From a virus (lineage: Duplodnaviria > Heunggongvirae > Uroviricota > Caudoviricetes), in the IMG/VR virus record IMGVR_UViG_3300021979_000001, positions 2,948 through 66,947 of that record: a stretch of DNA of 64,000 bases; one strand, given 5' to 3'. The notes under the pieces were generated by a model, which saw only the letters and a list, made by a program, of their open reading frames with translations, did not search any database and was not told the origin of the DNA. The translations under genes and the position numbers were made by a program. The stretch's first letter is position 1, and every line of letters begins with the position of its first letter. Shown piece after piece: positions 3,642 to 57,343 of the stretch.

Positions 3642-3661
3642 AACTGGTAACCTTTTGTTTT

Positions 3662-14287: not shown

Positions 14288-14313
14288 GTTATAATAAGAG
14301 CCATTTGAATAAT

Positions 14314-14550: not shown

Positions 14551-14581
14551 AATTGTTTCACCAAGTAAAAAATAAGTTAAA

Positions 14582-14824: not shown

Positions 14825-14877
14825 AATTGGTTCACCAATGAGAAAAAATAAGTTAAATCATTCACATTATATTTCAA

Positions 14878-15183: not shown

Positions 15184-15243
15184 AATTATTTCACTAAATG
15201 GTTAAACCACGTCAAATCGCACAGTTAGATTACAGGTATTGCA

Positions 15244-15444: not shown

Positions 15445-15512
15445 AATTAAATCATTCATTTATTACATCATCAACTGTTACCAGGTCCATTGTCATACCC
15501 GCTTATCGGCAT

Positions 15513-15770
15513 CTATTCAGGTTCACCACTTGATCCATCCCAGTTTCCACGACTCGAACCATTACCAAATCCAAAAGCCGAACAATAACCATTTTTGTGA
15601 ATAAAAATATGTTCATACGTTTTGCCATCACCATAACCATAACCATAACCAGAACCATATCCATAACCATTACCAAATCCAAAAACCGAACCATTATCTG
15701 AAACAATTTCCGAAACAATTTCATTTGGGCTGCTATCATCGCAATATAATAAATTTATCAGTTCATACAT
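15513..15770 (-). CDS. Gly-X repeat peptide minigene (divergent)
   Basis: Leader MYELINLLYCDDSSPNE; 85 aa. Confidence 0.5.
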   Translation of the reverse strand: MYELINLLYCDDSSPNEIVSEIVSDNGSVFGFGNGYGYGSGYGYGYGDGKTYEHIFIHKNGYCSAFGFGNGSSRGNWDGSSGEPE

Positions 15771-15772
15771 AA

Positions 15773-15930
15773 TTAATACTGACCATCCATCGAACCCTCA
15801 CCAAACCCATGACCATATCCATAAATGTCACCAACATCATCACATTCGCCGCCCCATTTGTATGACAGTAGTTCGTTAGGACGTCATAATTAAAATAATA
15901 AAACCCGATTAATATATTAATGATACGGAC
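15773..15930 (-). pseudogene. Possible decayed Gly-X minigene
   Basis: A tail frame WGGECDDVGDIYGYGHGFGEGSMDGQY follows a stop. The leader-like INILIGFYYFNYD is in another frame and there is no ATG. Confidence 0.3.
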
Positions 15931-15989
15931 ACCCCAAGTGATAAAAAATGATTTAAATCACTACAACTATAATTCAACTGTTAAGTTCG

Positions 15990-16238
15990 TTAATCCGATC
16001 CATGACCGAAACCAGCACCATATCCAGTCCCAAAACCATCCCCATCACTAGAGCCATGACCATGACCATGACCATCTTTATAGTCTTGACCAGACCCGAC
16101 ACCATTGCCATCCCCATCACCTAGACCATAACCTTTGCCATCCCCTTTACCATAGCCTTCACCATCGCCATCATCATAACTGATTTCCTTTTGATCGGCG
16201 GTATTTATGTAAAAAGATAGGATTACGTATGTGTTCAT
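15990..16238 (-). CDS. Gly-X repeat peptide minigene
   Basis: Leader MNTYVILSFYINTADQKE; 82 aa. Confidence 0.55.
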   Translation of the reverse strand: MNTYVILSFYINTADQKEISYDDGDGEGYGKGDGKGYGLGDGDGNGVGSGQDYKDGHGHGHGSSDGDGFGTGYGAGFGHGSD

Positions 16239-16290
16239 AATATGTCACTCCAAACACAACAATAATAATTCAAAATACACATATTATATT

Positions 16291-16530
16291 TCAATAAGCA
16301 CCGTCACCATAACCATGCCCCCAATGCCCAGTCATATTTGTATCCCCAATATCAAACCCATTCCCATTCCCATTCCCTTTTCCAAAACCAAAACCATAAC
16401 CATCACTATCCCCATTATGATGGACATAACTAAGACTATAACCTTTCCAATTGTCATACCCATCATACCCATCACTATCATCATATTCACAGATATGGAC
16501 ATAATAATACAATATTATGTTAATGTGCAT
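16291..16530 (-). CDS. Gly-X repeat peptide minigene (divergent)
   Basis: Uses Met6 of the track ORF; leader MHINIILYYYVHICEYDDSDG; 79 aa. Confidence 0.5.
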   Translation of the reverse strand: MHINIILYYYVHICEYDDSDGYDGYDNWKGYSLSYVHHNGDSDGYGFGFGKGNGNGNGFDIGDTNMTGHWGHGYGDGAY

Positions 16531-16578
16531 TACGAGTTCCCACATGTAAATAACATAATCAAACAGTTAATATAATAT

Positions 16579-16839
16579 CTATTTCATGGTCATATAAAAA
16601 TGATCTGTTTCATTACCATCATTGGCACCAGCCCCATGTCCAACACCGTTACTATCACCTAAATCATCACCCGAAGCAGAATCATCCCCCATACCAGAAT
16701 TATTTGTATGTCCAGAACCACTTCCTCTACCATATCCAAACACATGTCCTTTTTTATGTCCATGCGCAAACCCACGACCATAGTGATACCAATTACTATA
16801 TACATCGACACAATAAATTACTTTTATGGGCAATTTCAT
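16579..16839 (-). CDS. Gly-X repeat peptide minigene (divergent)
   Basis: Uses Met4 of the track ORF; leader MKLPIKVIYCVDVYSNW; 86 aa. Confidence 0.5.
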   Translation of the reverse strand: MKLPIKVIYCVDVYSNWYHYGRGFAHGHKKGHVFGYGRGSGSGHTNNSGMGDDSASGDDLGDSNGVGHGAGANDGNETDHFYMTMK

Positions 16840-16901
16840 TATTAACATCCAATCAATTAAATAGATAAACCGTAATAATTATAATTATTTCTTACACTAA
16901 T

Positions 16902-17180
16902 TCACCATGATTTTCTGACCCATTTATGCGAGCCGTAACCAATATTATAACTTGACCCATATCCATTTCCCTGTCCATCAGCATAACCATAACCATGCCC
17001 TGCCCCTGAAAGATAACTAACCCCTAACGTTGGGCTTGTATCCCCAACATATGCAGAGCCATCCCCCTGCCCGTCACCTTTAACAGAACCATCCTCATAC
17101 TCCGAACCAGTTCTAGTCCCGGAAAAGTTGTTATAAAGATCGGCATTTCGGTAAAAACACGATTTTATGGTGGGTTTCAT
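16902..17180 (-). CDS. Gly-X repeat peptide minigene (divergent)
   Basis: Uses Met4 of the track ORF; leader MKPTIKSCFYRNADLYNN; 92 aa. Confidence 0.5.
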   Translation of the reverse strand: MKPTIKSCFYRNADLYNNFSGTRTGSEYEDGSVKGDGQGDGSAYVGDTSPTLGVSYLSGAGHGYGYADGQGNGYGSSYNIGYGSHKWVRKSW

Positions 17181-17238
17181 ACTTATCACACTTGCAAAAA
17201 GTTGGATTAGTCATAAAATAAACACAATGGTGGCTGCA

Positions 17239-17484
17239 TTACCCGAAACTATCACCGAAATAAAAACCGTAAGCGTGACCACATCCAAGACCCTCACAAT
17301 TACCAGATTTAGCATTTAATCCATAATCCTGACCATGACCGTAAACGGCCCAATATCGAATTACGTAACTTATTTCATAATGAGAACCACTTCCCTGCCC
17401 CTCGCCATAACCACCCCCATTACGAATTAAAGAACCATTACCCGAACGTTTTATGTAATATAAATCTATTGGTATATTTGCCAT
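17239..17484 (-). CDS. Gly-X repeat peptide minigene (divergent)
   Basis: Leader MANIPIDLYYIKRSGNG; 81 aa. Confidence 0.5.
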   Translation of the reverse strand: MANIPIDLYYIKRSGNGSLIRNGGGYGEGQGSGSHYEISYVIRYWAVYGHGQDYGLNAKSGNCEGLGCGHAYGFYFGDSFG

Positions 17485-17533
17485 TTGACTTCGCCAAGTA
17501 AAAATGGATATATGGAGATAATCATTTCATTGT

Positions 17534-17728
17534 TCACTCTGCCATAGCACCATGCCCATAGCCATAACCACCATCAAACACGTTCCCATACCCATTACTA
17601 TCCCCATCCTCATACCCATCGCTAGAGTCAGACCCGTATCCATACCCGGTTCCATCACTATTGCCATATCGATAGCTATTATTATGTTGATCAACTGTGT
17701 AATATAGTAGTGTTATAGGTAGTTTCAT
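17534..17728 (-). CDS. Gly-X repeat peptide minigene
   Basis: Leader MKLPITLLYYTVDQHNN; 64 aa. Confidence 0.55.
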   Translation of the reverse strand: MKLPITLLYYTVDQHNNSYRYGNSDGTGYGYGSDSSDGYEDGDSNGYGNVFDGGYGYGHGAMAE

Positions 17729-17826
17729 TGTTTTATTACCAAGTTGGGTTCAACCGAAATAATACTGGTAAGTATATCAATCATACTCATATATCATTTA
17801 ATAATATAAGGGATAATGTAGTTTGG

Positions 17827-18213
17827 TTAGTCCTGTCCTAACGCATCTGACGAAAACGGATGTGAATTATCCATATGCTGACTGCATAACCATTCAATTC
17901 CAGTAATGGAGTAAACACCATTAACTGCGGGCGCGCCGCAATAATGACATTTTTTGTGTGCCATTTCGGACGTTCCGTCGTGTTTAGCACGTTTTTTACT
18001 GAACTTGGACTTTGTAAAATGCCCCGCTTTCATCTGGGTAACGGATTTACCCATTGCTCGGTAATTTGCCCCATTAATTCCTGTTGTTTTGGTTTGGTGT
18101 TTTGCTTTACACCCTTTACAACAATACTGCGCCCATCCTCGATTGCGATCTGCAATTCTTGCTTCAAAATCAGTTTTACACCATAAGCAAGAAAATGTTC
18201 CAGTGGCCGCCAT
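17827..18213 (-). CDS. Cys-rich zinc-ribbon-like small protein embedded in the array
   Basis: GGAG SD 9 nt upstream of the ATG. Contains CLWC, CCKGC and CHYC...C..H motifs; 128 aa and basic. Confidence 0.6.
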   Translation of the reverse strand: MAATGTFSCLWCKTDFEARIADRNRGWAQYCCKGCKAKHQTKTTGINGANYRAMGKSVTQMKAGHFTKSKFSKKRAKHDGTSEMAHKKCHYCGAPAVNGVYSITGIEWLCSQHMDNSHPFSSDALGQD

Positions 18214-18348
18214 AGGTCAAATCTCCATAATGGGGGGTAAAAATCATAAACAATTGTAGTATTTTTGGTTATATAAAGCAAAGATTAAAATTATTGTTTT
18301 TTGATGATTGGAATGGCATATAACACGGTGTCATCAATAACTTATTTC

Positions 18349-18594
18349 TCAATCAACCAAGTTTGCAATACCAAAACCATAACCGTTACTATCGCCTTCG
18401 GTATTACCTGGACCATCCCCATAACCTTCCCCATTACTTACACTATTACTAAATCCAAAACCATGCCCTGAACCATTACCAAAACTACGACCACAACCAC
18501 CCCCGTATTCTGATATAGCAATATCACCTACGGAATCATCATCACCTGGATAAAAATCGACGATATGATATGATAGTATGACAGTTTTCATCAT
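18349..18594 (-). CDS. Gly-X repeat peptide minigene (first in transcription order, divergent)
   Basis: Leader MMKTVILSYHIVDFYPGDDD; 81 aa. Confidence 0.5.
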   Translation of the reverse strand: MMKTVILSYHIVDFYPGDDDSVGDIAISEYGGGCGRSFGNGSGHGFGFSNSVSNGEGYGDGPGNTEGDSNGYGFGIANLVD

Positions 18595-21578: not shown

Positions 21579-22667
21579 TTACTTGAACTGATCACCAAAC
21601 GGATCAAAATCTTTTCCGCATGTTTTGGCACATACTTTTAATTTACCTGCGGCACAACTTGGTTTTGACCATGTGCTTTCGATGTAATTGAACATTGGCC
21701 CGGCTAAAATCTTTTCAACTGAAACCATGATACCATTGATTGCATCTTTGCCACCAACATGCTCGATTATTTTCCAAAGAGGCGATGATTTTGGTTCCAA
21801 ATACCATACATAAAGCTGGTTGGCGGTCCAACAGCATGGAAATACCAAACCTTCTGCCGATATATATATTGACCCTTCGGTATCAGTTTTGCAGGTGATC
21901 GGGGTATTATCCAAATAATTTTGCAAGCTACCATGCTTCGCAATTAATGATTGTTCCTGTTGCAAAGCATTGTTTTGGTATTGCGGATCAATTGGTTTTT
22001 CCAGGACGTGTTTTACGGTCCCATCCTTACCCATAACATCTTGCGAATCTTTGCCTTTTAGTTGGTTATTTGAGAAGAACCGCCCGGTTTTTTTAACCTG
22101 GAAGTGAATAAAACCCATTTCTGCGGCAAGGGTGCGGGCATCGTCCACCTGGTGTTCATTGTGTTTGAAAACAATATAATCCCAAATTGCGCGGCCACCA
22201 GATTGAATAAATGATTCCACATTACGCATAATAACATCGAACCGGCATCCTTGACGATACAGATGATTTGTATCATCAAGACCATCAATACCAAACCGAA
22301 CACTGTCACCTTTTTTTGATAACAGTTTACCGAGTTCTCCCCACCATTCGGGATTTTTCGCGCTACCATTGGTATTCATACCAAGGGTAATATTTGGGTT
22401 CATTTCTCGGAAATATTTCATTACGTCCAAGGTATCTTGGGCTGCAATTGGGTCGCCAAAATTACCACACATGTAAATTCGATTAAGACTTAGTAAAAAT
22501 TCCTTTGTGAAGATTTTTTTACAATCATCTAACGTCAATTCGGTAATCGGCAGGGATGGGTTTACCCATGTTCCAAGGACATTTCGTCCACATTGCGGGC
22601 ATGATGCATTGCATCTGGATGTGATTTCCAAATGCACAGTTTTAATACGAGAATATTCAAATGCCAT
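21579..22667 (-). CDS. Radical SAM enzyme with SPASM/twitch-like C-terminal Cys cluster (copy 1)
   Basis: CNASCPQC (CX3CX2C) at residues 19-26. Also CKTDTEGSIYISAEGLVFPC (CX13GX4C) and CAAGKLKVCAKTC. Confidence 0.85.
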   Translation of the reverse strand: MAFEYSRIKTVHLEITSRCNASCPQCGRNVLGTWVNPSLPITELTLDDCKKIFTKEFLLSLNRIYMCGNFGDPIAAQDTLDVMKYFREMNPNITLGMNTNGSAKNPEWWGELGKLLSKKGDSVRFGIDGLDDTNHLYRQGCRFDVIMRNVESFIQSGGRAIWDYIVFKHNEHQVDDARTLAAEMGFIHFQVKKTGRFFSNNQLKGKDSQDVMGKDGTVKHVLEKPIDPQYQNNALQQEQSLIAKHGSLQNYLDNTPITCKTDTEGSIYISAEGLVFPCCWTANQLYVWYLEPKSSPLWKIIEHVGGKDAINGIMVSVEKILAGPMFNYIESTWSKPSCAAGKLKVCAKTCGKDFDPFGDQFK

Positions 22668-27048: not shown

Positions 27049-27771
27049 ATGAATACTTTATCGATAAATGAACTAAGAAATGATTTAAAAGAATCAACAA
27101 ATAATATGTCCTGGACCGTAAGTAATATTATCACCGATGATGGTCTTTTACTACCACCAACGTCCGATTCTAAAGAAATATCGAAGTTATTAGAGCGACA
27201 AGCGGAAATACATTTGAGCAAGATTGCGGATAAGTATGGGTATGTTTTTGAAACAAGTAGTAGACAAAATACATACCCGGACGGAACATTAACAAAATAT
27301 GATGCTGGCAGAATACTCCATAGAATAGCAATAGATGCAAAAAGCACGTTTGAAAAACCATCCATGAATTTGACACTTGGTAGCTACACATCATTTTTAT
27401 TGAACGACAATAAAAGCATTACATATCCATATTCGACATATGATGACCATTGGGTTATGATTTTTACATATCGTCGAACAGAGGATGGTTCTTATGATTC
27501 AGTCAGATGGTATTTAACTGAAAAAGCCCGCATCACCGGGTTGGTGGCGGGTAGCGGCAACACAAAAAATATAGGGAGTGTTCGTTTCAGAAAAGTAGAT
27601 GATTTAACATCAATTAATGGGCCATTTGCCCGTTTCAAAAACATGAAAGGGGCTTCTGATCACTATTGGCGCAACTATGATCGTTTGCGCAAAGAAATCA
27701 AAAGCCCTGGCGATTTGATAATGCACCCGGAATTTGTTCAATTCACAAATCTGGAACGTAGTAATTGTTGA
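27049..27771 (+). CDS. EcoRV-family type II restriction endonuclease (PD-(D/E)XK)
   Basis: Matches EcoRV as I recall it along its length: KIADKYGY, QNTYPDGTL, IAIDAKST, LTLGSYTSF, ITYPYSTYDDHWVMIFTYRR, AGSGNTKNIGSV, HYWRNYDR. Confidence 0.75.
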   Translation: MNTLSINELRNDLKESTNNMSWTVSNIITDDGLLLPPTSDSKEISKLLERQAEIHLSKIADKYGYVFETSSRQNTYPDGTLTKYDAGRILHRIAIDAKSTFEKPSMNLTLGSYTSFLLNDNKSITYPYSTYDDHWVMIFTYRRTEDGSYDSVRWYLTEKARITGLVAGSGNTKNIGSVRFRKVDDLTSINGPFARFKNMKGASDHYWRNYDRLRKEIKSPGDLIMHPEFVQFTNLERSNC

Positions 27772-28828
27772 TTTTGTGTTGTAAAGCTGGAATTTTTGAT
27801 GATATTCCTTCGGTGGAAAGAATAATCAATCGATCTGCGGTCACGTAACTTTCGCACTTTGCATTGGTAAATGTCCCTAATTCGTTCCCATATCCGATTA
27901 GGATACCGCAATTAAGATTTAAAATATTGTTTGCGGTTTGTTTCCAGTCAATAACCGTGCGGTTAATGGCAACAGAGATCACACTATCTCCTTTGGCCGT
28001 GAATAAATCTTCTATGATTTCTTCGGTTCCAGGCGCGACCATCGCCCGAACCGCCATTGCTGGATAACTGCGCATGGGACGAATAACCGATGTTGCACCG
28101 GCAGCAATGATACGTTTTCGATTATGATCTGATACGCATTCAGCGATGATGGGAACGGATGGGTTTTGTTCACGAACGTGGTATACCGTGGAGAACGTGA
28201 TTGAGTCATCATCATTGCTGCCACTAGGTGCGATAACAAAGATCGCACGGCATTTGGTCAAACCGACTTGTTCGGACATGCCAGGACTGTTGATGTTTCC
28301 ATGATTGAAAATTGTTCGATTGTCAAAATCGCACAGGTTGGTCGTCCATTGGTCAGTGAGGATATTAATTGCGATTTTATTATATTCTGGAATATCACGA
28401 ATTTCCCGGATGAATTCCTGAAAATATTTTACCGCATTTGGTCCATTCGGTGACCCGATAACTAAAATGTGATCGTTCAATTTCCAGTTCCATTTCCCGG
28501 TTTTTATTGCATTTGATCGAAATTCGCGCATATCTTGATAAATGTCAATCATTCTAGCAAAAATTGCCAATGCTGGAATAAACAATACCATAACGCTTAT
28601 TATTCGACCGATAGGGGTTGATGCGGACAAATCCCCATATCCAATTGTAGTGATACTGGTTGAAGCCAACCATAACGCATCACCGATGGTCATATTTTCA
28701 TATATGACCATCGTTGGAACAAATATCCCGATACATAGTAATAAAATTGCACCTAATTCAAAGAACTCGCGTTTTGTCGTCTTGTTTCGAATTAGTTGAC
28801 GATTGCGCCAAAAAAACAAAAAGTGCAT
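27743..28828 (-). CDS. 2TM potassium channel with C-terminal RCK/TrkA-N-like domain
   Basis: Selectivity filter TSITTIGYGD lies between two TM helices. It is followed by ILVIGSPNGPNAVKYFQEF, which looks Rossmann-like. Confidence 0.8.
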   Translation of the reverse strand: MHFLFFWRNRQLIRNKTTKREFFELGAILLLCIGIFVPTMVIYENMTIGDALWLASTSITTIGYGDLSASTPIGRIISVMVLFIPALAIFARMIDIYQDMREFRSNAIKTGKWNWKLNDHILVIGSPNGPNAVKYFQEFIREIRDIPEYNKIAINILTDQWTTNLCDFDNRTIFNHGNINSPGMSEQVGLTKCRAIFVIAPSGSNDDDSITFSTVYHVREQNPSVPIIAECVSDHNRKRIIAAGATSVIRPMRSYPAMAVRAMVAPGTEEIIEDLFTAKGDSVISVAINRTVIDWKQTANNILNLNCGILIGYGNELGTFTNAKCESYVTADRLIILSTEGISSKIPALQHKINNYYVPDL

Positions 28829-31289: not shown

Positions 31290-32687
31290 TTATTCGCCGG
31301 TGAATGGTTTCGACGAGTGACGGGTTGTCAGCTTATCGAGTGCCCCAAGGCTGGTTACAATGTCCAACGACGTTGGTGCCGCAACGGATGAACCACCACC
31401 ATAATAAATATCCGGCATCGACACTGTAATGTCTTTTAGATTTGGATAAATAATTTGGGCGGTATCGCGTGCCAATTCTGCCATATAAATATCTTTGGCA
31501 TCTTGTAACGCCTTGTATTTGGCACGGGCAACGTCGGCTTCGGCCAGGCCAGTTTCACGAATAGATTCTGCCTTGAATTTTGCGGCCTGGGCCGTCGCAT
31601 TTTGAATATCTTTATCCGCAACTGCCATTTCAAGTTCCTTCTGTTTTTTCAGAAGGGCAATTTGCTTTTCCTTGTTTTGTCGAACTTTTTCCAGTTCCGC
31701 AGTTTGCCGTTCCACTTCCACCTGCTGAACAGCCCGGATAATAGCCAATTCTTTTTCTTTTTGTGCTTTTTGCACATCCCGCGCCTTCTCAATTTCCATA
31801 TTGAGAGCGATGGTTTTTGCTTCGGTGCGAGCGGTATCTTGTTCCTGCAACGAAGTGATACGTTTTGCGACCAACAGCTTTTTATCCCGCAGCAACGTTG
31901 TCAACTGGGGATCGGGTTCGGGACGACCGATAGTAACCTGCCGAACTGAAATCCCATACAGTTCAAGCGGGTTTGAAATCCGCAATTCGGCCCCGGCAGC
32001 ATTTGTGGTGATCACGTTTTTCCAAACTAGTTGGTTTCGGCTTTCCAACTTGTTTGCATCGGAATTCTCCGAATTAACGGCAGCAAAGTCGGTTTGCTGG
32101 ACTTCAACTTGTTTCCGTGTGGTTTGATACAAACCATAGGTTAACTGATTTTCAAGTTTTACCTTGAAATCGTTTAGGCCCCCTTGGAAAAATTCTTCCC
32201 CGGTATATTGCGTCCCTGTGACCACCGTGACGTTCTTGGCATTTTTAACCATCAAAGAATCAATGAGGTTGTCTTTGCCACGAAACTCCGAATGCATCAG
32301 AAGAATTTTCTGAACATCAGATGACAATTTAAACCGGAAGGTGGCCGGAATATCTGCAATATAAGTATCAGCAAATTGCACTGATACTGGGTCAAGCTGC
32401 CGCGTTGACGACGCTTCTTCACTGGCATCTTGATTGCCGAATGATATGACCACTGCTTGTGGATATTCGTAGATGGTAGTAAAGAATGGGATTTTAGCAT
32501 GAACCCCAGGCTCGGTATATACGATCAACCGGCCCAAAAGGGTATCTTGCAGGACATAAGTGATGCCTGCTGCGGTGGTGAAAAATGATGAAAACCCGAT
32601 GATTAAGGCAAAAATGGCAAAAATGCCGCCAATAATCCACCGTTTGATAGATTGTAAAATCATGTCATGTTCTTCTGTTTGGTCCAT
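31290..32687 (-). CDS. SPFH/band-7 (prohibitin/flotillin-like) membrane protein
   Basis: N-terminal TM segment, PGVHAKIPFFTTIYEYP, and a long charged coiled-coil region. Confidence 0.6.
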   Translation of the reverse strand: MDQTEEHDMILQSIKRWIIGGIFAIFALIIGFSSFFTTAAGITYVLQDTLLGRLIVYTEPGVHAKIPFFTTIYEYPQAVVISFGNQDASEEASSTRQLDPVSVQFADTYIADIPATFRFKLSSDVQKILLMHSEFRGKDNLIDSLMVKNAKNVTVVTGTQYTGEEFFQGGLNDFKVKLENQLTYGLYQTTRKQVEVQQTDFAAVNSENSDANKLESRNQLVWKNVITTNAAGAELRISNPLELYGISVRQVTIGRPEPDPQLTTLLRDKKLLVAKRITSLQEQDTARTEAKTIALNMEIEKARDVQKAQKEKELAIIRAVQQVEVERQTAELEKVRQNKEKQIALLKKQKELEMAVADKDIQNATAQAAKFKAESIRETGLAEADVARAKYKALQDAKDIYMAELARDTAQIIYPNLKDITVSMPDIYYGGGSSVAAPTSLDIVTSLGALDKLTTRHSSKPFTGE

Positions 32688-43900: not shown

Positions 43901-43954
43901 AGCTAAATAACTGTCCCAAATAATAGAAATAGAATGGTAATTAAGGATATATCT

Positions 43955-45673
43955 ATGCAAGTTAAGAAACGAAATGGTTCAATGGAGCCAGTAAATCTCG
44001 ATAAAATTGTTAAATCCATTGAAGCGGTAGCAACGGGCCTGGACGGGGTTGATGTTTTCCGAATCGCGCAGAAAACCGTTGGTGGACTAGTTCATGGTGT
44101 TACCACACGTGAACTCGATATGTTTTCAATTCGAAACGCGGCTGGGTTGATTATCGAAGACCCCGTATATTCCAAAGTCGCGGCCAGAATCATGCATAAC
44201 GTCATTTCCAAAGAAGTATCAGGACAAGATATTCAATCTTTTTCACAATCAATCAGTCTTGGTTACGAAATGGGGTTGATTGATGAACAAACATATAATC
44301 TGGTTATGAATAATAAACGCAAGTTAAATGCGTCTATTAAAACCGAACGTAGTGATTTATTTGAATTTCACGGAATCATCACTGTTTATGATAGATACCT
44401 GTTGAAGCATCGTGATTTGATGGCTGGCTCTGGGACGGATCGTCGTCGGGCAGTAATTGAAACCCCGCAATATTTCTTCATGCGTGTCGCTTGTGGTTTG
44501 GCGAATGATGCGAAAGAAGCAGTTGAACTGTATAATCTGGTATCATCGCTTGAATATATGACATCAACACCGACATTGTTTAATTCCGGGACATCACATA
44601 CGCAAATGTCGTCCTGCTATCTGCTTGATAGCCCGAACGATGATTTGCAGGATATTTATAAACGATATTCGGATATTGCCTCCCTATCAAAATTTGCGGG
44701 TGGCATTGGTGTGTCTGCTAGTCGCATTCGGTCTAAAGGTTCCCCCATTAAGGGCACAAACGGTCGTTCAAACGGTATCATTCCATGGTTACACACCCTG
44801 TCTGGATCAGTTGGGGCAGTCAACCAGGGCGGCAAGCGCAAAGGTGCTGCATGTGTTTATCTTGAACCACACCATGCTGATGTAATGCAGTTTTTGGAAT
44901 TGCGTGACCAGACGGGTGAAAAAGAACGTCGTGCCTATAACCTTAACATTGCAAATTGGGTATCTGATTTGTTTATGTCACGCGTCAAGAATGATGAAAT
45001 TTGGTCATTGTTTGATCCGGCTGATGTTCCAGAACTGGTTGATCTTTATGGTGATGAATATACCAAACGGTATCTTGAACTTGAAGAACAGGGAAAATTT
45101 GTTGAACAGATTAGCGCACGAAAAATTTATGCGCGAATGATGCGCACCCTGGCAGAAACCGGTAATGGTTGGATGTGCTTTAAAGATACATCCAATAATC
45201 GCGGGAATCAGGTGGGCGAGGGACGCTCGATCAAGCTGTCAAACCTTTGTTTTGCCCCAGATACCATCATTCATGCAAAACTGGGTGATAAGGTAATGGA
45301 CATTGAAATCAAGGCATTAAGTGATTATTTCAGCGTTGGTATTCCGGTTCAGGTTTGGTCGTTCAACGAAGAAACACACGAAATGGAATGGAAAAATGTG
45401 GTGAATGCCGGATTGACCAATCCTGATGCGGAATTGATGGAAATCGAAACACCATCCGGTAAAATAATTCGTTGCACGGAAGATCACCCCATGCTGACTG
45501 AACGCGGGTGGGTTAATGCTGGCGATCTAACCGAAGACGACTCTCTTGTTGAAGTTGATACCACGCAAGAAGTGCATAAATTCGAACATTGGAATAAAGA
45601 TAAACACATGGTAACCGAAATTATCATGGATCATCTTTATTCCAAAAATAAAAAAACCAGCGTCATTATGTAA
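43955..45673 (+). CDS. nrdA: Ribonucleotide reductase class Ia alpha subunit, N-terminal fragment fused to an N-intein
   Basis: GGGIGVSASRIRSKGSPIKGTNGRSNG, then ...KLSNL followed by CFAPDT (intein block A) and TEDH (block B). A stop lies at 45671-45673. The alternative start is at 43934. Confidence 0.85.
   Translation: MQVKKRNGSMEPVNLDKIVKSIEAVATGLDGVDVFRIAQKTVGGLVHGVTTRELDMFSIRNAAGLIIEDPVYSKVAARIMHNVISKEVSGQDIQSFSQSISLGYEMGLIDEQTYNLVMNNKRKLNASIKTERSDLFEFHGIITVYDRYLLKHRDLMAGSGTDRRRAVIETPQYFFMRVACGLANDAKEAVELYNLVSSLEYMTSTPTLFNSGTSHTQMSSCYLLDSPNDDLQDIYKRYSDIASLSKFAGGIGVSASRIRSKGSPIKGTNGRSNGIIPWLHTLSGSVGAVNQGGKRKGAACVYLEPHHADVMQFLELRDQTGEKERRAYNLNIANWVSDLFMSRVKNDEIWSLFDPADVPELVDLYGDEYTKRYLELEEQGKFVEQISARKIYARMMRTLAETGNGWMCFKDTSNNRGNQVGEGRSIKLSNLCFAPDTIIHAKLGDKVMDIEIKALSDYFSVGIPVQVWSFNEETHEMEWKNVVNAGLTNPDAELMEIETPSGKIIRCTEDHPMLTERGWVNAGDLTEDDSLVEVDTTQEVHKFEHWNKDKHMVTEIIMDHLYSKNKKTSVIM
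45248..45670 (+). other. Split intein, N-terminal half (IntN, 141 aa including about 40 aa of tail)
   Basis: It begins at the Cys codon directly after SNL. The extein motif SNLCTEI is interrupted at this point. Confidence 0.75.
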
Positions 45674-45817: not shown

Positions 45818-45919
45818 ATGGCATTAAAAATTCGTCGCACCGGAGAAAGAAGTCCGGTATATGATTTGCATGTTGCAGATAATCACACGTTCGTAGCGGA
45901 TGGTCATATTGTCCATAAT
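45818..45919 (+). other. Split intein, C-terminal half (IntC, 34 aa)
   Basis: MALKIRRTGERSPVYDLHVADNHTFVADGHIVHN followed by the +1 Cys (CTEILEV). It resembles DnaE-type IntC in length and in its VYD..V...H.F.A..G.I..N pattern. Confidence 0.75.
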
Positions 45920-47092
45920 TGCACCGAAATTTTAGAAGTCACATCATCTGGTGACAAGTTAAAAATGAGTCGTGAACAGATTGCGGCCTTAACCAAAGAT
46001 GACATGATTAAGGACAATATCCGTGTTGTTGGCTTTGACCATAAGACTGATCAATTTGAAGTCATTAAGGGAATGGAAACTGCGGTTTGTAATCTTGGCT
46101 CGATTAACCTGTCTCGTGGTTATGTCAAGGCTGGCAAACTCGACAAAGTAAAGTTGCGAAAGAATGTTGCAATTGCGGTTAAATATCTTGATCGCGTTAT
46201 TGATCGTAATTTTTATCCAATCCCGGAAGCAGAATCATCGAATGATCGGTGGCGTCCAATTGGACTTGGATTGATGGGTCTGGCGGATTTCTTCTTTCAG
46301 ATTGGATTACCATTTGGCAGTGATGAAGCAATTAAATTGTCTGGTGAGATTCAGGAAGAAATTTATTATCAGGCATTGGTGACATCTAACGAATTGGCAA
46401 AAGAACATGGCCCACATCGTGATTTCGATTTAACACGGGCGGCCAAAGGAGAATTACAATTCGATTTGGCGGGCGTAGAAGTGGCCGACAAAGAGCGTTG
46501 GGATGATCTTAAGGCATCCATCATGGAACACGGCTTACGCAACTCCTTGGTCATTGCAATCGCTCCCACGGCCACTATTAGTCATATCGTTGGGGCCGAA
46601 GAATGCATTGAACCAATCAAGTTTAATTTGATGAAACGCGAAACCTTGTCCGGTGAATTTATTTCGATCAATAAGTATTTGGTTCGTGATCTGAAAAAAC
46701 TTGGGCTATGGGATGAACGCATGCGATCATTGCTAACACGAGAAAATGGTTCGGTCCAAAACTTGCCGGTTCCTGATGAAATCAAAGAACTCTATAAAAC
46801 AGTTTGGGAAATATCACAGAAAGACATCATCGCCCATGCTGTTGCTCGTGGTGCCTTTATTGATCAAAGCCAGTCTCTCAATCTGTTCCTGGACTTGACC
46901 AAACATGCACCGGATAAGCGCATCGGTGTTGTATCAAAACTTTATATGCATGCATGGGAAATGGGTTGCAAAACAACTTATTATTTGCGCACACGATCAG
47001 GAAGTCAGATTGAAAAGGTGACGATTAACAGTCAGTCATCTGCCCCTGCGGCGGCACCGGAAAATCCAGATATTTGTGAAAGCTGCACCTAA
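45818..47092 (+). CDS. nrdA: C-intein fused to the ribonucleotide reductase class Ia alpha subunit, C-terminal fragment
   Basis: Has its own GAAAGG SD and ATG. CTEILEV completes SNLCTEI, and the C-terminal CESC tail is present. Confidence 0.85.
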   Translation: MALKIRRTGERSPVYDLHVADNHTFVADGHIVHNCTEILEVTSSGDKLKMSREQIAALTKDDMIKDNIRVVGFDHKTDQFEVIKGMETAVCNLGSINLSRGYVKAGKLDKVKLRKNVAIAVKYLDRVIDRNFYPIPEAESSNDRWRPIGLGLMGLADFFFQIGLPFGSDEAIKLSGEIQEEIYYQALVTSNELAKEHGPHRDFDLTRAAKGELQFDLAGVEVADKERWDDLKASIMEHGLRNSLVIAIAPTATISHIVGAEECIEPIKFNLMKRETLSGEFISINKYLVRDLKKLGLWDERMRSLLTRENGSVQNLPVPDEIKELYKTVWEISQKDIIAHAVARGAFIDQSQSLNLFLDLTKHAPDKRIGVVSKLYMHAWEMGCKTTYYLRTRSGSQIEKVTINSQSSAPAAAPENPDICESCT

Positions 47093-47805: not shown

Positions 47806-49500
47806 ATGTCAGATATTAGAAAATTTATTAATATTGTAAGCGGAAAACCGATTTTATCGGAAAGTAAAGCATCTTTACTACTCACTGAATCATCGGTTTA
47901 TAGCACTATGCTTAATCCGTTATTGTCATATATTGAAAAAAATCCCGATAACGTAAATACGACAGCCGATGCGATTAAGAGAACATTCAATACTGAATTG
48001 AAATGGGCCAAAACATATCTTAAGAAAAATGATCGTGTTATTTGGTTTATGCGACTCGTTCGATATGTTATTGCACAAAAATCATTCCCAGCAGATGTTG
48101 CATCGGCATTTAGTAGTTCCGATGACAAAATACCACTTCAATTAAATAACATTAAAACAAACCTAGTTCACTATTATGGTTTAAATATTAATCAAATCAA
48201 TACGTATCCATTAAGTAAAGAAAGCCCACAAGAATTATTTGGTATCTTTGCAGACTTTGAAGAAGAATGGAAAGAAATGGCTGATCGTTTTATTCCATTT
48301 GATGCTATTACAGATATAAAAATATTATTTGATGCTGGCGATGGTTATTACTGGGTTGATCTTAATCGGGCATCATGTCGTTTAGAAGCCGATTCTATGG
48401 GTCATTGTGGTAATACCGGGGGAAATTATTCTGATCGAATTTACAGTTTGCGTAAAATCCATAATTTTAATGGAGAAAAGTTTTGGGAACCATTCTTAAC
48501 ATTCATTGTGGATGATAAGGGATTTCTTGGTGAAATGAAAGGCCGGGGTAACGACAAACCAGCGGACCGGTATCATCCATATATTATTAAATTACTTGAA
48601 AAGCCTTATATTAAAGGAATCAAGGGTGGTGGATATTTGCCACAAAATAATTTTTCGTTAGATGATTTAACTGAATCCGAAACTGAACGTCTGTATGCAG
48701 TCAAACCAACCCTGGCACCATTTGATATACAATACGAACGTAATGGAATGACACCAGAATTGGCAAAGTTAATCAGCTATAAATTTGATAACGAAATTGA
48801 ATGGTCCGAAGATTACCAATATATAATTTTATACTCATATAATGATATTGCTGATTTAATCGAAAATGTTGGAAATTCAACCGCGAAATACATTATGAAT
48901 GTCATTGACGGTGATGAAATCGTTGAATATTTAGCAGGTGATGATGAAATAAAAACTTTTGTTGACGACTTACCGAATATTGTCATTTCGCAAATAAAGG
49001 AACACACCTTTAATGAATATCCTGAAACATGTCAAGATGAATATAATTGCGATGAAGCCGATGATTTATCAGTATCAGAATGTGTTGAAATTTTATCAAA
49101 TGAAATGGATGACATGTATCACGCCATTAGATCAGCGGTTGAAATGGGTCATCGATATGGCACAGAAAATGAAATGATGGATAATTTGAAAAAGGCTGTT
49201 TTAAATCCAACAATTGAAATGTATGATGATATTGATTTTAGGATTATACTTGATACTGATCAATTTTGGGATAACCCTTGTTATATCGCTGCTCCTATAG
49301 AAAATATATTCACCGAAATGAAAAATGATCCAGATATAATTGATGAACTAATCAACAATACCCACGATGATGAAATACTCAAAGTTAATGTTTCGGAGCC
49401 TCATTATGGATATAATGAGTATGATTTGGATGCCGCGATTGCGGAATTCTATGAGGTGTCGGACATTTCTGATCCAGCACTTGAAAAAAATGCGGCATAA
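47806..49500 (+). CDS. hypothetical protein (564 aa)
   Basis: Long ORF with no recognised motif. Confidence 0.6.
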   Translation: MSDIRKFINIVSGKPILSESKASLLLTESSVYSTMLNPLLSYIEKNPDNVNTTADAIKRTFNTELKWAKTYLKKNDRVIWFMRLVRYVIAQKSFPADVASAFSSSDDKIPLQLNNIKTNLVHYYGLNINQINTYPLSKESPQELFGIFADFEEEWKEMADRFIPFDAITDIKILFDAGDGYYWVDLNRASCRLEADSMGHCGNTGGNYSDRIYSLRKIHNFNGEKFWEPFLTFIVDDKGFLGEMKGRGNDKPADRYHPYIIKLLEKPYIKGIKGGGYLPQNNFSLDDLTESETERLYAVKPTLAPFDIQYERNGMTPELAKLISYKFDNEIEWSEDYQYIILYSYNDIADLIENVGNSTAKYIMNVIDGDEIVEYLAGDDEIKTFVDDLPNIVISQIKEHTFNEYPETCQDEYNCDEADDLSVSECVEILSNEMDDMYHAIRSAVEMGHRYGTENEMMDNLKKAVLNPTIEMYDDIDFRIILDTDQFWDNPCYIAAPIENIFTEMKNDPDIIDELINNTHDDEILKVNVSEPHYGYNEYDLDAAIAEFYEVSDISDPALEKNAA

Positions 49501-50180
49501 TGGATCGTATAAAGCTAAGTAGTAAAGCAAAGAAATATTATGGGTATCAGCGGTGCAAATCACGTCCGCTGACCCATGATGAAACAGAAACATTTGCTTA
49601 TGATTTCCACAAGGGGATTTACGATCAAATCGCCAAGTATATCCCAAATGGTGGTGCCATGATGGATTTCGGATGTGGAATCGGCATTATTAATATTTTT
49701 TGTGCGAAATCATTTGCAACGCTTTATCTCGTTGATGGAACGGTTGATACGGCATCTCTTGATAACACATTTTATGGGTTTCATGGTGCGGGATATGATT
49801 TACACGATGATTACGACCCGGTTCCTGATCGAAAAGTCAATGTTTTCAGTAATTATTGTTTTTATAATGATTTAACTGTTAGTAAAGATACTATTGCACC
49901 ATATCTACCAAACACCAATATTATATGCATGACCCCAGATAATTTGAATATGCCCGATTACAGCCTTGATTTGGTGCAAAGTCATATGTCATGGGGATGG
50001 CATTACCCATTTGACCAATATCGGTCTGCTATCACAAATAAAATCAAACCTGGTGGGACGTTGATTATTGATATTCGTGATAACACATTGCAACCCGGAG
50101 ATTTACAGGATTTTCGTGTGATCGACAAATTGGCTAACCGTGAACAAAACAGCCGAAAGTATATTTTAGAAAAATGTTAA
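49500..50180 (+). CDS. Class I SAM-dependent methyltransferase
   Basis: Motif I GGAMMDFGCGIGI; TAATG overlap with the upstream gene. Confidence 0.55.
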   Translation: MDRIKLSSKAKKYYGYQRCKSRPLTHDETETFAYDFHKGIYDQIAKYIPNGGAMMDFGCGIGIINIFCAKSFATLYLVDGTVDTASLDNTFYGFHGAGYDLHDDYDPVPDRKVNVFSNYCFYNDLTVSKDTIAPYLPNTNIICMTPDNLNMPDYSLDLVQSHMSWGWHYPFDQYRSAITNKIKPGGTLIIDIRDNTLQPGDLQDFRVIDKLANREQNSRKYILEKC

Positions 50181-50860
50181 TCCTTGAACAAATCATGATG
50201 GCGGTTCGTAACGCAACTGTTTTTATTGATCCATTTCCACATATGGTTATTGATAACTTGGTAACATATGAAACATATAAACAATTGTTACCGTTATATC
50301 CGATGCATAAAGACTATGTATCTGCAAAAGAAATGCTGGGGGGAGAAGAAACAATTTGGCGTGATTATATCGCCGCGTTAAATACAGTTGAGTTTCATCA
50401 ATTATGTTTGCAGAAATTTGGATCACATATTGTTTTAACTCGTGATAACACTGGTTTGCGAAAAGTTGATGACAAAACACCTTATGTAACTGAAAGCTAT
50501 ACCATTATTCGTTATCCGAGTGAAGAATGGGTATTAAAGCCGCATATTGATAGTGAATATGCCAGGATTAGTTCTGTTCATATGTTTAAAGATTTTTCGG
50601 ATACTGGAACCGGTGGAGAATACTGCACATTGGTAAGAAATTCAGATGCGTTACGTGTTGTGTCTGATAACAATGTTATTGATTATGCGGAACCAGATGG
50701 TTTTACCATCGCAAAAAAGGTTCCGTATTCACCAAATGCGGCGGTAATCATGTTTAAAACATCAACACAGTGGCACGGGATAATGCCGAGTTCATATGCC
50801 AAACGTCGAACAGTTAATTTCAGTCTAGAAACACAAAACTCGGGTATTCGTAAAAAATAG
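50174..50860 (+). CDS. 2OG-Fe(II) dioxygenase
   Basis: FPHMVIDN N-terminus, HxD in KPHIDSE, distal His in TQWHGIMP, and Arg in RRTVNFS. Confidence 0.55.
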   Translation: MLILEQIMMAVRNATVFIDPFPHMVIDNLVTYETYKQLLPLYPMHKDYVSAKEMLGGEETIWRDYIAALNTVEFHQLCLQKFGSHIVLTRDNTGLRKVDDKTPYVTESYTIIRYPSEEWVLKPHIDSEYARISSVHMFKDFSDTGTGGEYCTLVRNSDALRVVSDNNVIDYAEPDGFTIAKKVPYSPNAAVIMFKTSTQWHGIMPSSYAKRRTVNFSLETQNSGIRKK

Positions 50861-50880: not shown

Positions 50881-51966
50881 TTACATTTCGCGATGTAACG
50901 TTATTTTATGTTGTCCAAGAGGACGTTTTGCTTTTGCCGTTTTCCCACACGTTGTCGCGCATTTAACCATTTTTCCACATTTCCCGGTGCCAAATGATTG
51001 AGAAAAGCTAGACACAATATGTTTGGTATAAAAATCATGTGCCAGGACATCACTAACTGAATGAATATCTAGCCTGTTCCAATCGGGATCATCCGCAAAC
51101 ATAATGTGATCGATTTGTCGCCAAGTATGGCTTGTTTTGTTGAACTCGGTGTTACGGATAAAACAGCACGGCCATAATCTCGATTCGAAATCAATGAAAT
51201 ACATTCCTTCTGACCCGAAATAGCAATCTATCGGTTCGTCTTCAATATCTCGATTGGCGTCAAACATAGTTCTAATAGGACTCGAACTGGAATTATTATT
51301 GCCTTGATGATTTTTCATCTTAATCGCCGCAATATCATCATACGTCCAGTTATTTTGGGAAATCGTGCTGCGATCATTTCGTGCAACAAATCGCCAAAAC
51401 CCCATATCCTTGCTTTTTTGGCAAGCATCATCAATTTGATGATTATTCCATGGGAACACCAAAAATTGCCAAGTGGCCTTTCCCCCGGCATCGATGAATG
51501 ATTTGGCATTCTCCATAATAGCATCGAACCGGGTATTTTGGCGATACATGTGGTTGGTGTCAGACAGACCATCTATTGAAAACTTAATTTCGTGTTTATG
51601 GAACCGGGACAAAATGGATGCGGTTTCGGTCCAATATTCGGGAAGTCTGATAGCGCCATTGGTGTGTATAACAATATGATCAATGTTGGATTGCATGCTG
51701 GCAATACCCAGCAATTCGTTGAATTGTGGATGCATGAACGGTTCGTCTATCGAACCACAAAATTCTAGCTTTGATATGGATGCAAAACCCGGATCGGCTA
51801 ACAATTTCCGAAACGTGTCTGGTTTGATCATCGTCTTATCAGGAATAGTAGACCGTTTTTGATTGAAGTTGTGTGGGTCAGTTCGGTTGCATCCAGGACA
51901 TAACGCATTACACATACTGCTAATTTCTAGCTGCAATGTGGTTGGGTCTAATAGGTAGTGTTGCAC
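50881..51966 (-). CDS. Radical SAM enzyme with SPASM/twitch-like C-terminal Cys cluster (copy 2, paralog of 21579..22667)
   Basis: CNALCPGC. Shares blocks with copy 1 (FSIDGLSDTNHMYRQNTRFDAIMENAKSFIDAGGKATW). Also WPCCF and CGKMVKCATTCGK. Confidence 0.85.
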   Translation of the reverse strand: MQHYLLDPTTLQLEISSMCNALCPGCNRTDPHNFNQKRSTIPDKTMIKPDTFRKLLADPGFASISKLEFCGSIDEPFMHPQFNELLGIASMQSNIDHIVIHTNGAIRLPEYWTETASILSRFHKHEIKFSIDGLSDTNHMYRQNTRFDAIMENAKSFIDAGGKATWQFLVFPWNNHQIDDACQKSKDMGFWRFVARNDRSTISQNNWTYDDIAAIKMKNHQGNNNSSSSPIRTMFDANRDIEDEPIDCYFGSEGMYFIDFESRLWPCCFIRNTEFNKTSHTWRQIDHIMFADDPDWNRLDIHSVSDVLAHDFYTKHIVSSFSQSFGTGKCGKMVKCATTCGKTAKAKRPLGQHKITLHREM

Positions 51967-52128
51967 GTATTCAGCACCTTTGTTTTTTAGATCATACCAT
52001 ATGTCCGACGTAAATCGGTATATATCTTTTTATGAATTTGGTTAACGAAAATATTGCATTGCGACAGGGTATTGTGGCATATTTAGCCCTATCAAATGGA
52101 AACACACCAAATATAGTTTAAGGGAACA

Positions 52129-52590
52129 ATGATAAACGATAAAAATAATAAAACATTCGGTATCTATTCCAAAGTAGTTTATACCGATGCAGATAATCAA
52201 CGCATTGCTGATTATATTAAAAAGCACAATTTTCCCAATCCGGTTGCGACCAATGATATACATACAACATTGGTTTACTCTCGCAAACCGTTTCAGTGGA
52301 AACCAAATCTTGGCAATAGTGATAACACACCAATTGCCACCGCTTCAACATACCAGCTTGAAGTTTTTGAATCGGATACTGGAAATTATTTAGTTGCTCT
52401 TGTTCATAGTGAATACTTGGTAAAACGCTGGGTAGAAGCTATTGATAATGGGGCAACTTGGGACTATCCCGAATATCGCCCACATATTACGCTTGCAACG
52501 GATATTGGCGATTTTGATATTTCGGATATTCCTGATCCGGTGTTTGATCTGCAAATCGTAAAAGAAGTTGTAGAACAACTAAAAGACTAA
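52129..52590 (+). CDS. 2H phosphoesterase superfamily protein (LigT/Acb1-like)
   Basis: Two HxT motifs, DIHTTLVYS (His45) and RPHITLATD (His119); 153 aa. Confidence 0.6.
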   Translation: MINDKNNKTFGIYSKVVYTDADNQRIADYIKKHNFPNPVATNDIHTTLVYSRKPFQWKPNLGNSDNTPIATASTYQLEVFESDTGNYLVALVHSEYLVKRWVEAIDNGATWDYPEYRPHITLATDIGDFDISDIPDPVFDLQIVKEVVEQLKD

Positions 52591-52613
52591 CCTAATTTTT
52601 TGGAGAATTTTTT

Positions 52614-53624
52614 ATGTCATTATTAGACCCTGGCTTCGACCTTACCCTGCGACCAATGAAATACCCGAAATTTTTTGATGCATTTCGTGATGCACAGAAT
52701 AATAACTGGTCCGTTCAGGAAATTTCATTTGCAACGGATTTCACCGACCTTCAAGAAAAACTTACCCCTGCTGAACGGCATGTAGTTTCCCGGTTGGTTG
52801 CATTTTTTGCTACTGGCGATAATATCGTTGCAAACAACGCCGCATTGACCTTGTATCGCCATGTCAATTCACCCGAAGCCAGATTATATTATTCCCGGCA
52901 GATTTTCGAAGAATCGTTGCATGTCGAATTTTACCTTACCCTATTGGACAATTATATCCCCGATCCCGAAGAACGGGCGGAAATGTTCCGGGCAATTGAA
53001 ACCATCCCATCTGTTAAGAAAAAAGCAGATTTTGCAATGAAATGGATGGATCAAATGGATTCAATTGATCGGTTGGAAACAAATGATCAAAAAAAGACAT
53101 TTTTGATGAATTTGTTGGCATTTGCCACCTGCATTGAAGGACTATTTTTCTTTGCGGCATTTGCGTATGTATATTATCTTCGAGATCGTGGTTTGTTACA
53201 TGGCTTGGCATCGGGGACCAACTGGGTGTTTCGCGATGAATCATGGCATATGCGATTTGCATTCGATGTTATTGACGTAGTTCGCAAAGAAAACCCGGAA
53301 TTGTGGGATGACGATCTTGAAACCCGCATTTATGAAATGCTGGATGAAGCAATCGATTGTGAAATGCAATTTGCCGACGATGTTTTGACCATGGGTGTGA
53401 TTGGCCTTTCAAAAGATGATATGCGCGAATATCTGCAATATACTGCCGATAATCATTTGCGTCGTTTGAACATGAAACCATGCTATGACTCTAAATGTCC
53501 ATTTGATTTCATGCTAAAACAAGACGTGCAAGCATTAACCAGCTTTTTCGAACGCACAGTATCAGAATATTCTGTAGGTATTGGCGGAAATGTTGATTTT
53601 GATGATGATGACGTTGATTTTTAA
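52614..53624 (+). CDS. nrdB: Ribonucleotide reductase class Ia beta subunit
   Basis: GGAGA SD; ferritin-like EESLHVEFY, ATCIEGLFFFAAFAY, RDESWHMRF; acidic C-terminal tail. Confidence 0.9.
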   Translation: MSLLDPGFDLTLRPMKYPKFFDAFRDAQNNNWSVQEISFATDFTDLQEKLTPAERHVVSRLVAFFATGDNIVANNAALTLYRHVNSPEARLYYSRQIFEESLHVEFYLTLLDNYIPDPEERAEMFRAIETIPSVKKKADFAMKWMDQMDSIDRLETNDQKKTFLMNLLAFATCIEGLFFFAAFAYVYYLRDRGLLHGLASGTNWVFRDESWHMRFAFDVIDVVRKENPELWDDDLETRIYEMLDEAIDCEMQFADDVLTMGVIGLSKDDMREYLQYTADNHLRRLNMKPCYDSKCPFDFMLKQDVQALTSFFERTVSEYSVGIGGNVDFDDDDVDF

Positions 53625-53637: not shown

Positions 53638-53672
53638 TAGGGGGCAAAAATACTTGCCCCCTAATTTCTTTT
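53638..53672 (+). terminator. Rho-independent terminator
   Basis: TAGGGGGCAA-AAATAC-TTGCCCCCTA followed by a T-rich tract. Confidence 0.65.
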
Positions 53673-56089: not shown

Positions 56090-56875
56090 GTGAACCGTCC
56101 AACCAAGACATTTATGGCTTTTATGATGGTGGCAACACTGTCCGCGTGTGCCGATGTCAATAAAGTTGATCGGGGAGATTTTGGTTCTTTTGAACGTTCG
56201 CTGAACCATAAAAGTTATGGTTATCAATTGATTGATGATCCGACTGGTTCAGCACCAACTGCACAAGTAGAGCGGTTTGAAGTTCGCGATGGTGATTGTG
56301 CGAATGATTTCACGTGGAGTGATTGCGCAACCCATCGCGAACGGTCCGAGGTTAAACAACCGCCGAAAATGCGGCGGTTATCCGAAGGAACACACCAGTG
56401 GTATAGCTGGTATATATACGTCCCGAAAGGGACACCTTCGATCAATCCGGGAAATAACTGCATGGCGCAGTTTCACAACTCGGGTTCAAATGAAACAGCG
56501 TTTATGTTTCAACATGGTTTAGGTGGGTATTACTTCGACAACCATTTATTCCGCGATGCCAACTATGTTGTTTTGGTCCCAAAAGGTCAATTCGATGGAA
56601 AATGGCATCATATTGAAGTCGAAGTTTTTTGGTCGCGAAACGGCCAGAAAGGTTTTGTTAATGTGTGGGCCAATGGCGACCAAAAAGTCGCGTGGAAGGG
56701 GGTAACCCTTCGGGCTGGGGATGCATACTTTAAGTATGGTATTTATCGGTCGCACCTTGATCGCTTTGACAAGGTGTATCCCGGTAAAAAACATCCAACA
56801 CAAATTGCCATGTATGCCGGGGTGCGTGCCGGTGAAACGCGGGCTGATGTTCAAATACCCGCTTCCAACTTCTGA
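56090..56875 (+). CDS. Lipoprotein with polysaccharide-lyase-like (ConA-like jelly-roll) domain
   Basis: AAGGA SD and GTG start. Lipobox in MAFMMVATLSAC. RERSEV, WYSWYIYVP, GKWHHIEVEVFWS and YFKYGIYRS. GC content is above the flanks. Confidence 0.5.
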   Translation: MNRPTKTFMAFMMVATLSACADVNKVDRGDFGSFERSLNHKSYGYQLIDDPTGSAPTAQVERFEVRDGDCANDFTWSDCATHRERSEVKQPPKMRRLSEGTHQWYSWYIYVPKGTPSINPGNNCMAQFHNSGSNETAFMFQHGLGGYYFDNHLFRDANYVVLVPKGQFDGKWHHIEVEVFWSRNGQKGFVNVWANGDQKVAWKGVTLRAGDAYFKYGIYRSHLDRFDKVYPGKKHPTQIAMYAGVRAGETRADVQIPASNF

Positions 56876-56887: not shown

Positions 56888-57343
56888 ATGAACGAAGATT
56901 CCAACAACATTATTACCGTAACAAACAACATCGTGACCGCCTACCTTGCGAACAACAGCATCGACTACGCTGACCTGCCTGACTTTATCATCAACGTGTC
57001 AAACGCGGTCCGGGGCGTTGAAGAAAGCGCGTCGGTCTCTGGCAACATTACCATCAACGACACCCCGGCCCCGGCCCCAACTGAAAAGCCGAAACCTGCG
57101 GTTTCAATCAAGAAATCCATTGGCGACGATTTCATCATCTGTCTGGAAGACGGGAAGAAATTGAAAATGCTGAAACGCCACCTTCGGACCACCTACAACA
57201 TGACCCCGGACGAATACCGGGCCAAATGGGGCCTGCCCGCAGATTACCCGATGGTTTGCCCGAACTACGCCCAACAGCGCTCCGAACTGGCCCGCCAAAA
57301 TGGCCTTGGTCGCAAAGCTGGCTCCAAAAAGGCGGACGCCTAA
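56888..57343 (+). CDS. mucR: Ros/MucR family transcriptional regulator (variant metal site)
   Basis: ICLEDGKKLKMLKRHLRTTYNMTPDEYRAKWGLPADYPMVCPNYAQQRSELARQNGLG. Confidence 0.8.
   Translation: MNEDSNNIITVTNNIVTAYLANNSIDYADLPDFIINVSNAVRGVEESASVSGNITINDTPAPAPTEKPKPAVSIKKSIGDDFIICLEDGKKLKMLKRHLRTTYNMTPDEYRAKWGLPADYPMVCPNYAQQRSELARQNGLGRKAGSKKADA

Follow-up and report, generated by a model that had tools for sequence, protein, structure and literature searches.

The stretch of DNA analysed here, positions 2,948 to 66,947 of the IMG/VR virus record IMGVR_UViG_3300021979_000001, comprises 64,000 nt and will be called the window, to which all position numbers refer. Our subject is a short gene encoding a 2H phosphoesterase that almost certainly belongs to the Acb1 family of viral proteins directed against the antiphage signalling system based on cyclic oligonucleotides (CBASS). 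An earlier note on this DNA had pointed to a 153-aa open reading frame (ORF) that is flanked by a radical S-adenosylmethionine (SAM) gene and a ribonucleotide reductase (RNR) gene and contains two HxT motifs, at H45-T47 and H119-T121. Translation places the ORF and both motifs exactly where the note had put them, and a Pfam scan locates both neighbours as claimed (Table 1).

Layout of the locus

The 23-nt gap between the Acb1-family gene and the RNR small-subunit gene contains the ribosome-binding site of the latter (TGGAGA), and a consensus scan detected no sigma-70-like promoter on the + strand of the 162-nt intergenic region upstream. The two genes are probably co-transcribed, with the terminator-like hairpin beyond the RNR gene as the likely end of the two-gene unit. 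This layout suggests a transcript made alongside nucleotide-metabolism functions.

Table 1. Features of the Acb1-family gene and its immediate surroundings (window positions)
Feature	Position	Strand	Remarks
Radical SAM gene	50881-51966	-	Other flank of the Acb1-family gene
Possible weak Shine-Dalgarno AAGGGA	52120-52125	+	3 nt 5' of the ATG; predicted from the sequence
Acb1-family 2H phosphodiesterase gene	52129-52590	+	153 aa, ATG start, TAA stop (ORF listing and translation)
Y13 codon	52165-52167	+	Aligns with base-stacking Y12 of T4 Acb1
First catalytic HxT, H45-T46-T47 (DIHTTLVYS)	52261-52269	+	Equivalent to T4 H44/T46
F80 codon	52366-52368	+	Aligns with base-stacking W74 of T4
Y113 codon	52465-52467	+	Aligns with base-stacking F107 of T4
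Second catalytic HxT, H119-I120-T121 (RPHITLATD)	52483-52491	+	Equivalent to T4 H113/T115
E149 codon	52573-52575	+	Aligns with T4 E141 (adenine N6 contact)
Last codon (D153) and TAA stop	52585-52590	+	D153 aligns with T4 L145; C-terminal lid absent
RNR small-subunit gene	52614-53624	+	Pfam Ribonuc_red_sm, E 1.9e-81; 23 nt 3' of the Acb1-family gene
Terminator-like hairpin and T-rich tail	53638-53663	+	10 pairs, 6 of them G-C; consensus scan only

Family assignment, binding-site residues and fold

The protein matches the Pfam family PF23474 (Anti-CBASS protein Acb1) with E = 3.2e-35 and 121.4 bits, for a gathering cut-off of 27 bits, its residues 11-152 aligning to positions 2-138 of the 144 in the profile; the precomputed database annotation of the protein is PF23474 as well. 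The sole other Pfam match, to LigT_PEase (PF02834), spans the 26 residues around the second HxT motif (99-124) and reaches 16.2 bits, below its cut-off of 23.3 bits. NCBIfam gave no match. PHROG 755, matched at 6e-33, is the family of T4 gene 57B and still carries the label 'RNA ligase'. The product of that gene, gp57B, is the founding Acb1 (PMC9117128); it is 33% identical to the protein studied here (E = 4e-21). Among PDB sequences the top match is the Acb1 of phage FBB1 (7t26), whose E value of 3.7e-16 for the single sequence fell to 3.8e-43 when a profile of 90 family sequences was used. Next in the profile search came PDE-9 (9q2g, 1.2e-17), from Burkholderia phage BCSR5, and, at 2.5e-17, the C-terminal domain of the portal protein of cyanophage Pam3; the search yielded no LigT or ThpR chain at E ≤ 1.

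Homologues of the protein were found by tblastn in 1,490 phage records, mainly of T4-like phages and every one of them below 60% identity, the top matches being in Pectobacterium phage POP12 (39%) and the jumbo Ralstonia phage RsoM2USA (36%). A HMMER search of 1.84 billion cluster representatives returned 1,706 clusters at E ≤ 1e-3, the nearest non-self relative being 41-43% identical; judged by its sequence, the protein is thus a divergent member of a large known family. These relatives emerged from the exhaustive HMMER search, a word-indexed protein search having retrieved only the protein itself, and no related loci were found in viral contigs with the single protein as query. No match was obtained when the locus was compared by megablast with 50,697 phage records, and the genome therefore has no close cultured relative.

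Residue conservation was assessed in alignments of 66, 90 and 152 homologues, the column counts being taken from the largest. In T4 Acb1 the active-site tetrad consists of H44, T46, H113 and T115, while Y12, W74, F107 and W147 are the stacking aromatics and E141 contacts adenine N6 (PMC9117128). Both histidines of the present protein, H45 and H119, are invariant in all three alignments, and Thr occupies the T47 column in 151/152 sequences and the T121 column in 141/152. The column of Y13 (T4 Y12) holds Tyr or Phe in 144/152. At F80 (T4 W74) the family majority is Phe, as in FBB1 (Phe in 81 and Trp in 46 of the 152), and at Y113 (T4 F107), again as in FBB1, Tyr occurs in 69 and Phe in 65. E149, the counterpart of T4 E141, lies in a column with Glu in 98/152, and the near-invariant T4 E138 is retained as E146. 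T4 W147 has no equivalent, the protein stopping ahead of that position. These alignments show conservation of the whole catalytic tetrad, of three base-stacking aromatics and of the Glu that reads adenine. The earlier note had taken the HxT pair as the hallmark of a 2H enzyme, and it is a genuine one: the whole protein matches the Pfam Acb1 family and both His are invariant among homologues.

An AlphaFold2 model, built from the 90-sequence alignment with the T4 row left out, has a mean predicted local distance difference test score (pLDDT) of 94.9 and a predicted template modelling score (pTM) of 0.87, and is uncertain only at the first 10 and the last few residues. Searched against the PDB with Foldseek, it ranks FBB1 Acb1 (7t26) first, with template modelling (TM) scores of 0.78/0.86, a root-mean-square deviation of 2.2 Å and 32% identity, followed by PDE-9 (TM about 0.7) and E. 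coli LigT (TM 0.5-0.63, about 15% identity); those matches in BFVD that bear names are called 'Anti-CBASS protein Acb1'. The predicted structure is a compact 2H phosphoesterase fold of about 150 aa, closest to solved Acb1.

The protein could instead be a LigT/ThpR-type RNA 2',3'-cyclic phosphodiesterase or a 2'-5' RNA ligase-like enzyme, serving the phage in RNA or tRNA repair or end-healing. LigT/ThpR proteins and the bacterial cyclic phosphodiesterases (CPDase), represented by E. coli LigT (5LDI) and the D. radiodurans CPDase (5H7F), do share the 2H fold and the HxT/HxT chemistry. For choosing between the two roles the earlier note had proposed, among other things, a comparison of profiles or structures, and its reading would have been refuted by closest structural matches to LigT proteins alone; the matches did not come out that way, and every test that was run (Pfam, PDB sequence, T4 identity and fold search) favours the Acb1-type assignment. 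The bit scores given above put Acb1 well over its cut-off and LigT_PEase under its own, no LigT/ThpR chain appears in the PDB profile search, and the structural comparison places Acb1 first, with a clear gap to LigT/CPDase. No RNA ligase or polynucleotide kinase/phosphatase (Pnkp) occurs among the 41 window proteins scanned with Pfam, in a genome that far exceeds the window. We regard the LigT-type alternative as highly unlikely.

Acb1-like domains also occur within larger phage proteins. Among the best 150 of the 1,706 family representatives, about 30 exceed 200 aa, and the domain is often fused into bigger proteins, the longest of 2,105 aa; the tblastn matches include genes annotated as portal and prohead protease. 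The Pam3 portal protein (PDB 8hds) bears an Acb1-like domain at its C-terminus (residues about 481-611), with HVT and HIS motifs intact, and Acb1 is not mentioned in the paper describing that structure. A portal-fused domain of this kind may represent an enzyme delivered with the virion. In phage RsoM2USA (MG752970.1) the homologue is encoded at positions 2980-3468 of the extracted locus by an ORF of 162 aa that starts with GTG; the deposited gene RsoM2USA_37, labelled hypothetical protein, covers only the last 91 codons of that ORF, and its start looks mis-called.

The absent C-terminal lid and the predicted function

By homology with the characterised enzymes we infer a substrate, a reaction and an anti-defence role for the protein; we consider Acb1-like activity in that role probable. 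In such a mechanism, Y13, F80 and Y113 would provide stacking surfaces for the bases of a cyclic nucleotide, and E149 would recognise adenine N6. The tetrad formed by H45/T47 and H119/T121 would then break the 3'-5' bond on adenosine's 3' side by metal-independent acid-base catalysis, the reaction passing through a 2',3'-cyclic phosphate intermediate to a linear 3'-phosphate product. The substrates would be adenine-containing cyclic di- and trinucleotide signals, and their removal would starve CBASS-type effectors of their activator and blunt immunity. Viral 2H enzymes with a comparable task are known from poxviruses, whose cGAMP phosphodiesterases (penguinpox cGAMP PDE, 9BKQ) degrade cyclic GMP-AMP (cGAMP) for immune evasion.

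Several points weigh against this reading. The protein ends in ...EVVEQLKD and stops two residues short of the position of the lid Trp (T4 W147), a feature that the earlier note had missed; in the alignment with T4 Acb1, T4 residues 146-152, the stacking W147 included, are without counterpart. In T4 Acb1 the C-terminal lid, residues 145-152, becomes ordered over the ligand (PMC9117128), and a Δ145-152 deletion abolished the activation of Panoptes, the authors considering the lid necessary for catalysis (bioRxiv 10.1101/2025.08.21.671373). In the present protein nothing evident takes the place of the lid, and the N-terminal head has 10 aa before the conserved Gly versus 9 in T4. In the comparison of lid-bearing and lid-less relatives described below, no residue co-varies with lid loss (the best p value, 1.4e-4 over 1,760 tests, fails multiple-testing correction), and we found no assay of any naturally lid-less Acb1 homologue in the literature. 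Around the gene there is no recognisable anti-defence island, its neighbours being nucleotide-metabolism genes.

A lid hidden by frameshift or readthrough was considered and rejected. Downstream of the TAA there is no in-frame Trp codon, and the sole downstream TGG (52601-52603) lies in the +1 frame, within the TGGAGA ribosome-binding site, and was judged a coincidence.

Truncation at this point is widespread in the family. Among 120 single-domain representatives the lid Trp is present in 57 and absent from 63, and most of the latter end 7-9 residues past the equivalent of E138, like the present protein. The 20 nearest neighbours of the protein are evenly divided between lid-bearing and lid-less forms (10:10), and the homologue in the cultured jumbo phage RsoM2USA is also lid-less. 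The N-terminal head has the same length, 11.7 aa, in lid-bearing and lid-less groups alike, and the adenine-reading Glu is at least as conserved when the lid is missing (47/63 versus 36/57). Because it is common among relatives, mixed among the nearest neighbours and present in a cultured phage, absence of the lid is a recurrent natural state, not the product of decay or an assembly artefact. It follows from its absence in more than half of these relatives that the lid does not define family membership; it is a trait of the two characterised enzymes and not of the sequence family as a whole.

These counts bear directly on the view that truncation at the C-terminus has left the protein a non-functional Acb1 remnant, inactive or in decay. 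The in vivo inactivation of T4 Acb1 by lid deletion (bioRxiv 10.1101/2025.08.21.671373) speaks for such a remnant. On the other hand, the catalytic and ligand-contacting residues of the core are all intact and the model is confidently folded. The point of truncation, moreover, recurs in dozens of independent clusters of about 30-40% identity, the cultured jumbo phage among them, which is unlike random decay. We consider a remnant very unlikely.

Comparison with the characterised enzymes delimits what can be carried over from them. The Acb1 proteins of T4 (gp57B) and Erwinia phage FBB1 (PF23474; PDB 7T26/7T27) are both lidded, unlike the present protein, in which the loop at residues about 52-69, following the first HxT strand, is also 5 residues longer. 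In T4-type genomes Acb1 stands beside 57A/ipI, whereas here it stands beside RNR genes in a very large phage. PDE-9 (PDB 9Q2G/9Q2Y), which is about 16-18% identical to the protein, has a 15-residue N-terminal lid and its first His at 50; no such extension is present here, the head having only 10 residues and the first His lying at 45 (H44 in T4). Removal of the PDE-9 lid is tolerated for cleavage of 3'3'-cGAMP and abolishes cleavage of 2'3'-cyclic di-AMP (2'3'-c-di-AMP), and the authors conclude that the core, not the lid, sets specificity (bioRxiv 10.1101/2025.08.21.671373). Because the C-terminal lid is missing, a more open pocket is expected in the present protein, which may turn over more slowly or accept fewer substrates than T4 Acb1. 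Absence of the lid limits the transfer of the T4 mechanism, and leaves efficiency and substrate range uncertain.

An alternative that departs less from the proposed function retains the Acb1 core and supposes that lid loss has narrowed or shifted the substrate range, or has simply made the enzyme much slower. A narrowed enzyme might, for example, cleave 3'3'-cGAMP or cyclic tri-AMP (cA3) and spare 2'3'-c-di-AMP, evading CBASS without tripping a decoy-signal system like Panoptes. The protein does lack the lid, and lid-less forms that keep the catalytic and adenine-reading residues are common (63/120), which argues for a retained, selected function rather than decay. Against a changed range stand the conclusion of the preprint that specificity is governed by the core and not by the lid (bioRxiv 10.1101/2025.08.21.671373), the fact that no core differences were found between lid-bearing and lid-less proteins, and the reading of the T4 lid-deletion result by its authors as a general loss of catalysis, not as changed specificity. 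We regard this, the leading alternative, as unlikely.

Extended to the family, the same idea would make lid-less Acb1 proteins, about half of the nearest cluster representatives, a distinct functional subtype whose open pocket narrows the range of substrates, a proposition that we consider doubtful. If it were true, large phages could escape CBASS by means of the subtype and yet not set off Panoptes or other decoy-signal systems, and the lid's repeated gain and loss would visibly record an arms race.

With Acb1-like cleavage of cyclic nucleotides as the favoured function, the gene adds a confidently assigned member of the Acb1 family, probably serving counter-defence, to the very large genome of an uncultured phage, and its presence suggests that the host uses cyclic-oligonucleotide immunity. 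The lid-less state is the sole unusual feature of the protein, and it poses a puzzle: the lid is reported as required in T4 Acb1, yet about half of the relatives stop before it with the core residues kept. The literature that we found does not address whether the lid is dispensable or how it bears on specificity.

Genome context and other features of the window

The 64-kb window looks viral and the gene phage-encoded: the window also holds a virion structural gene (phrog_14154, E 1.4e-23) and genes for a phage-type DnaB helicase and a primase. Further genes encode the RNR large subunit with an intein, the RNR small subunit, YqeY, a polysaccharide lyase, a Ros/MucR protein and an amidoligase; a tRNA scan detected no tRNA genes in the window. 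The identical Acb1-family protein is encoded in contigs of the JGI, ENA and Logan assemblies. The longest of these contigs measures 457,165 bp and speaks for a phage genome of very large size.

Two ORFs on the + strand (43934-45673 and 45818-47092), 144 nt apart, encode the RNR large subunit. At the end of the first lies the N-terminal splicing part of an intein, and the second starts with the C-terminal part, followed by the RNR barrel; the intein is either split, with trans-splicing, or disrupted in its middle.

From 48 to 18594 the - strand carries a tandem array of about 55 small genes (64-144 aa), each with an N-terminal leader of 20-25 aa followed by a G-[Y/H/D/S/N/F]-G low-complexity tail. 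The leaders fall into several sub-families, exemplified by MVTIYNLYYSIPLITNDETYG and MNLPINQYFCIHADDHETGSGHG. The array explains why the GC skew is so extreme here (-0.4 to -0.5; the + strand has 11.7% G and 28.1% C) and why long ORFs are missing from this region. It could represent a greatly expanded family of Gly/Tyr-rich peptides, or precursors resembling those of ribosomally synthesized and post-translationally modified peptides (RiPPs). Just downstream of the array lies a radical SAM gene (21582-22667, -), whose 362-aa product is close in length to the 361-aa radical SAM protein encoded beside the Acb1-family gene. Next to the latter radical SAM gene are a methyltransferase-like gene (49500-50180) and a 2-oxoglutarate (2OG)-Fe(II) oxygenase-like gene (50174-50860), both weak Pfam matches.

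A potassium-channel protein with an RCK/TrkA domain (27746-28828, -) and an SPFH/Band 7 protein (31293-32687, -) are likewise encoded in this apparent phage genome. The gene for the Ros/MucR-family regulator (56888-57343, +; E 2.5e-46) adjoins that for the polysaccharide lyase (56090-56875, +). Regulators of this family are typical of Alphaproteobacteria and their phages, and the gene may offer a clue to the host lineage.
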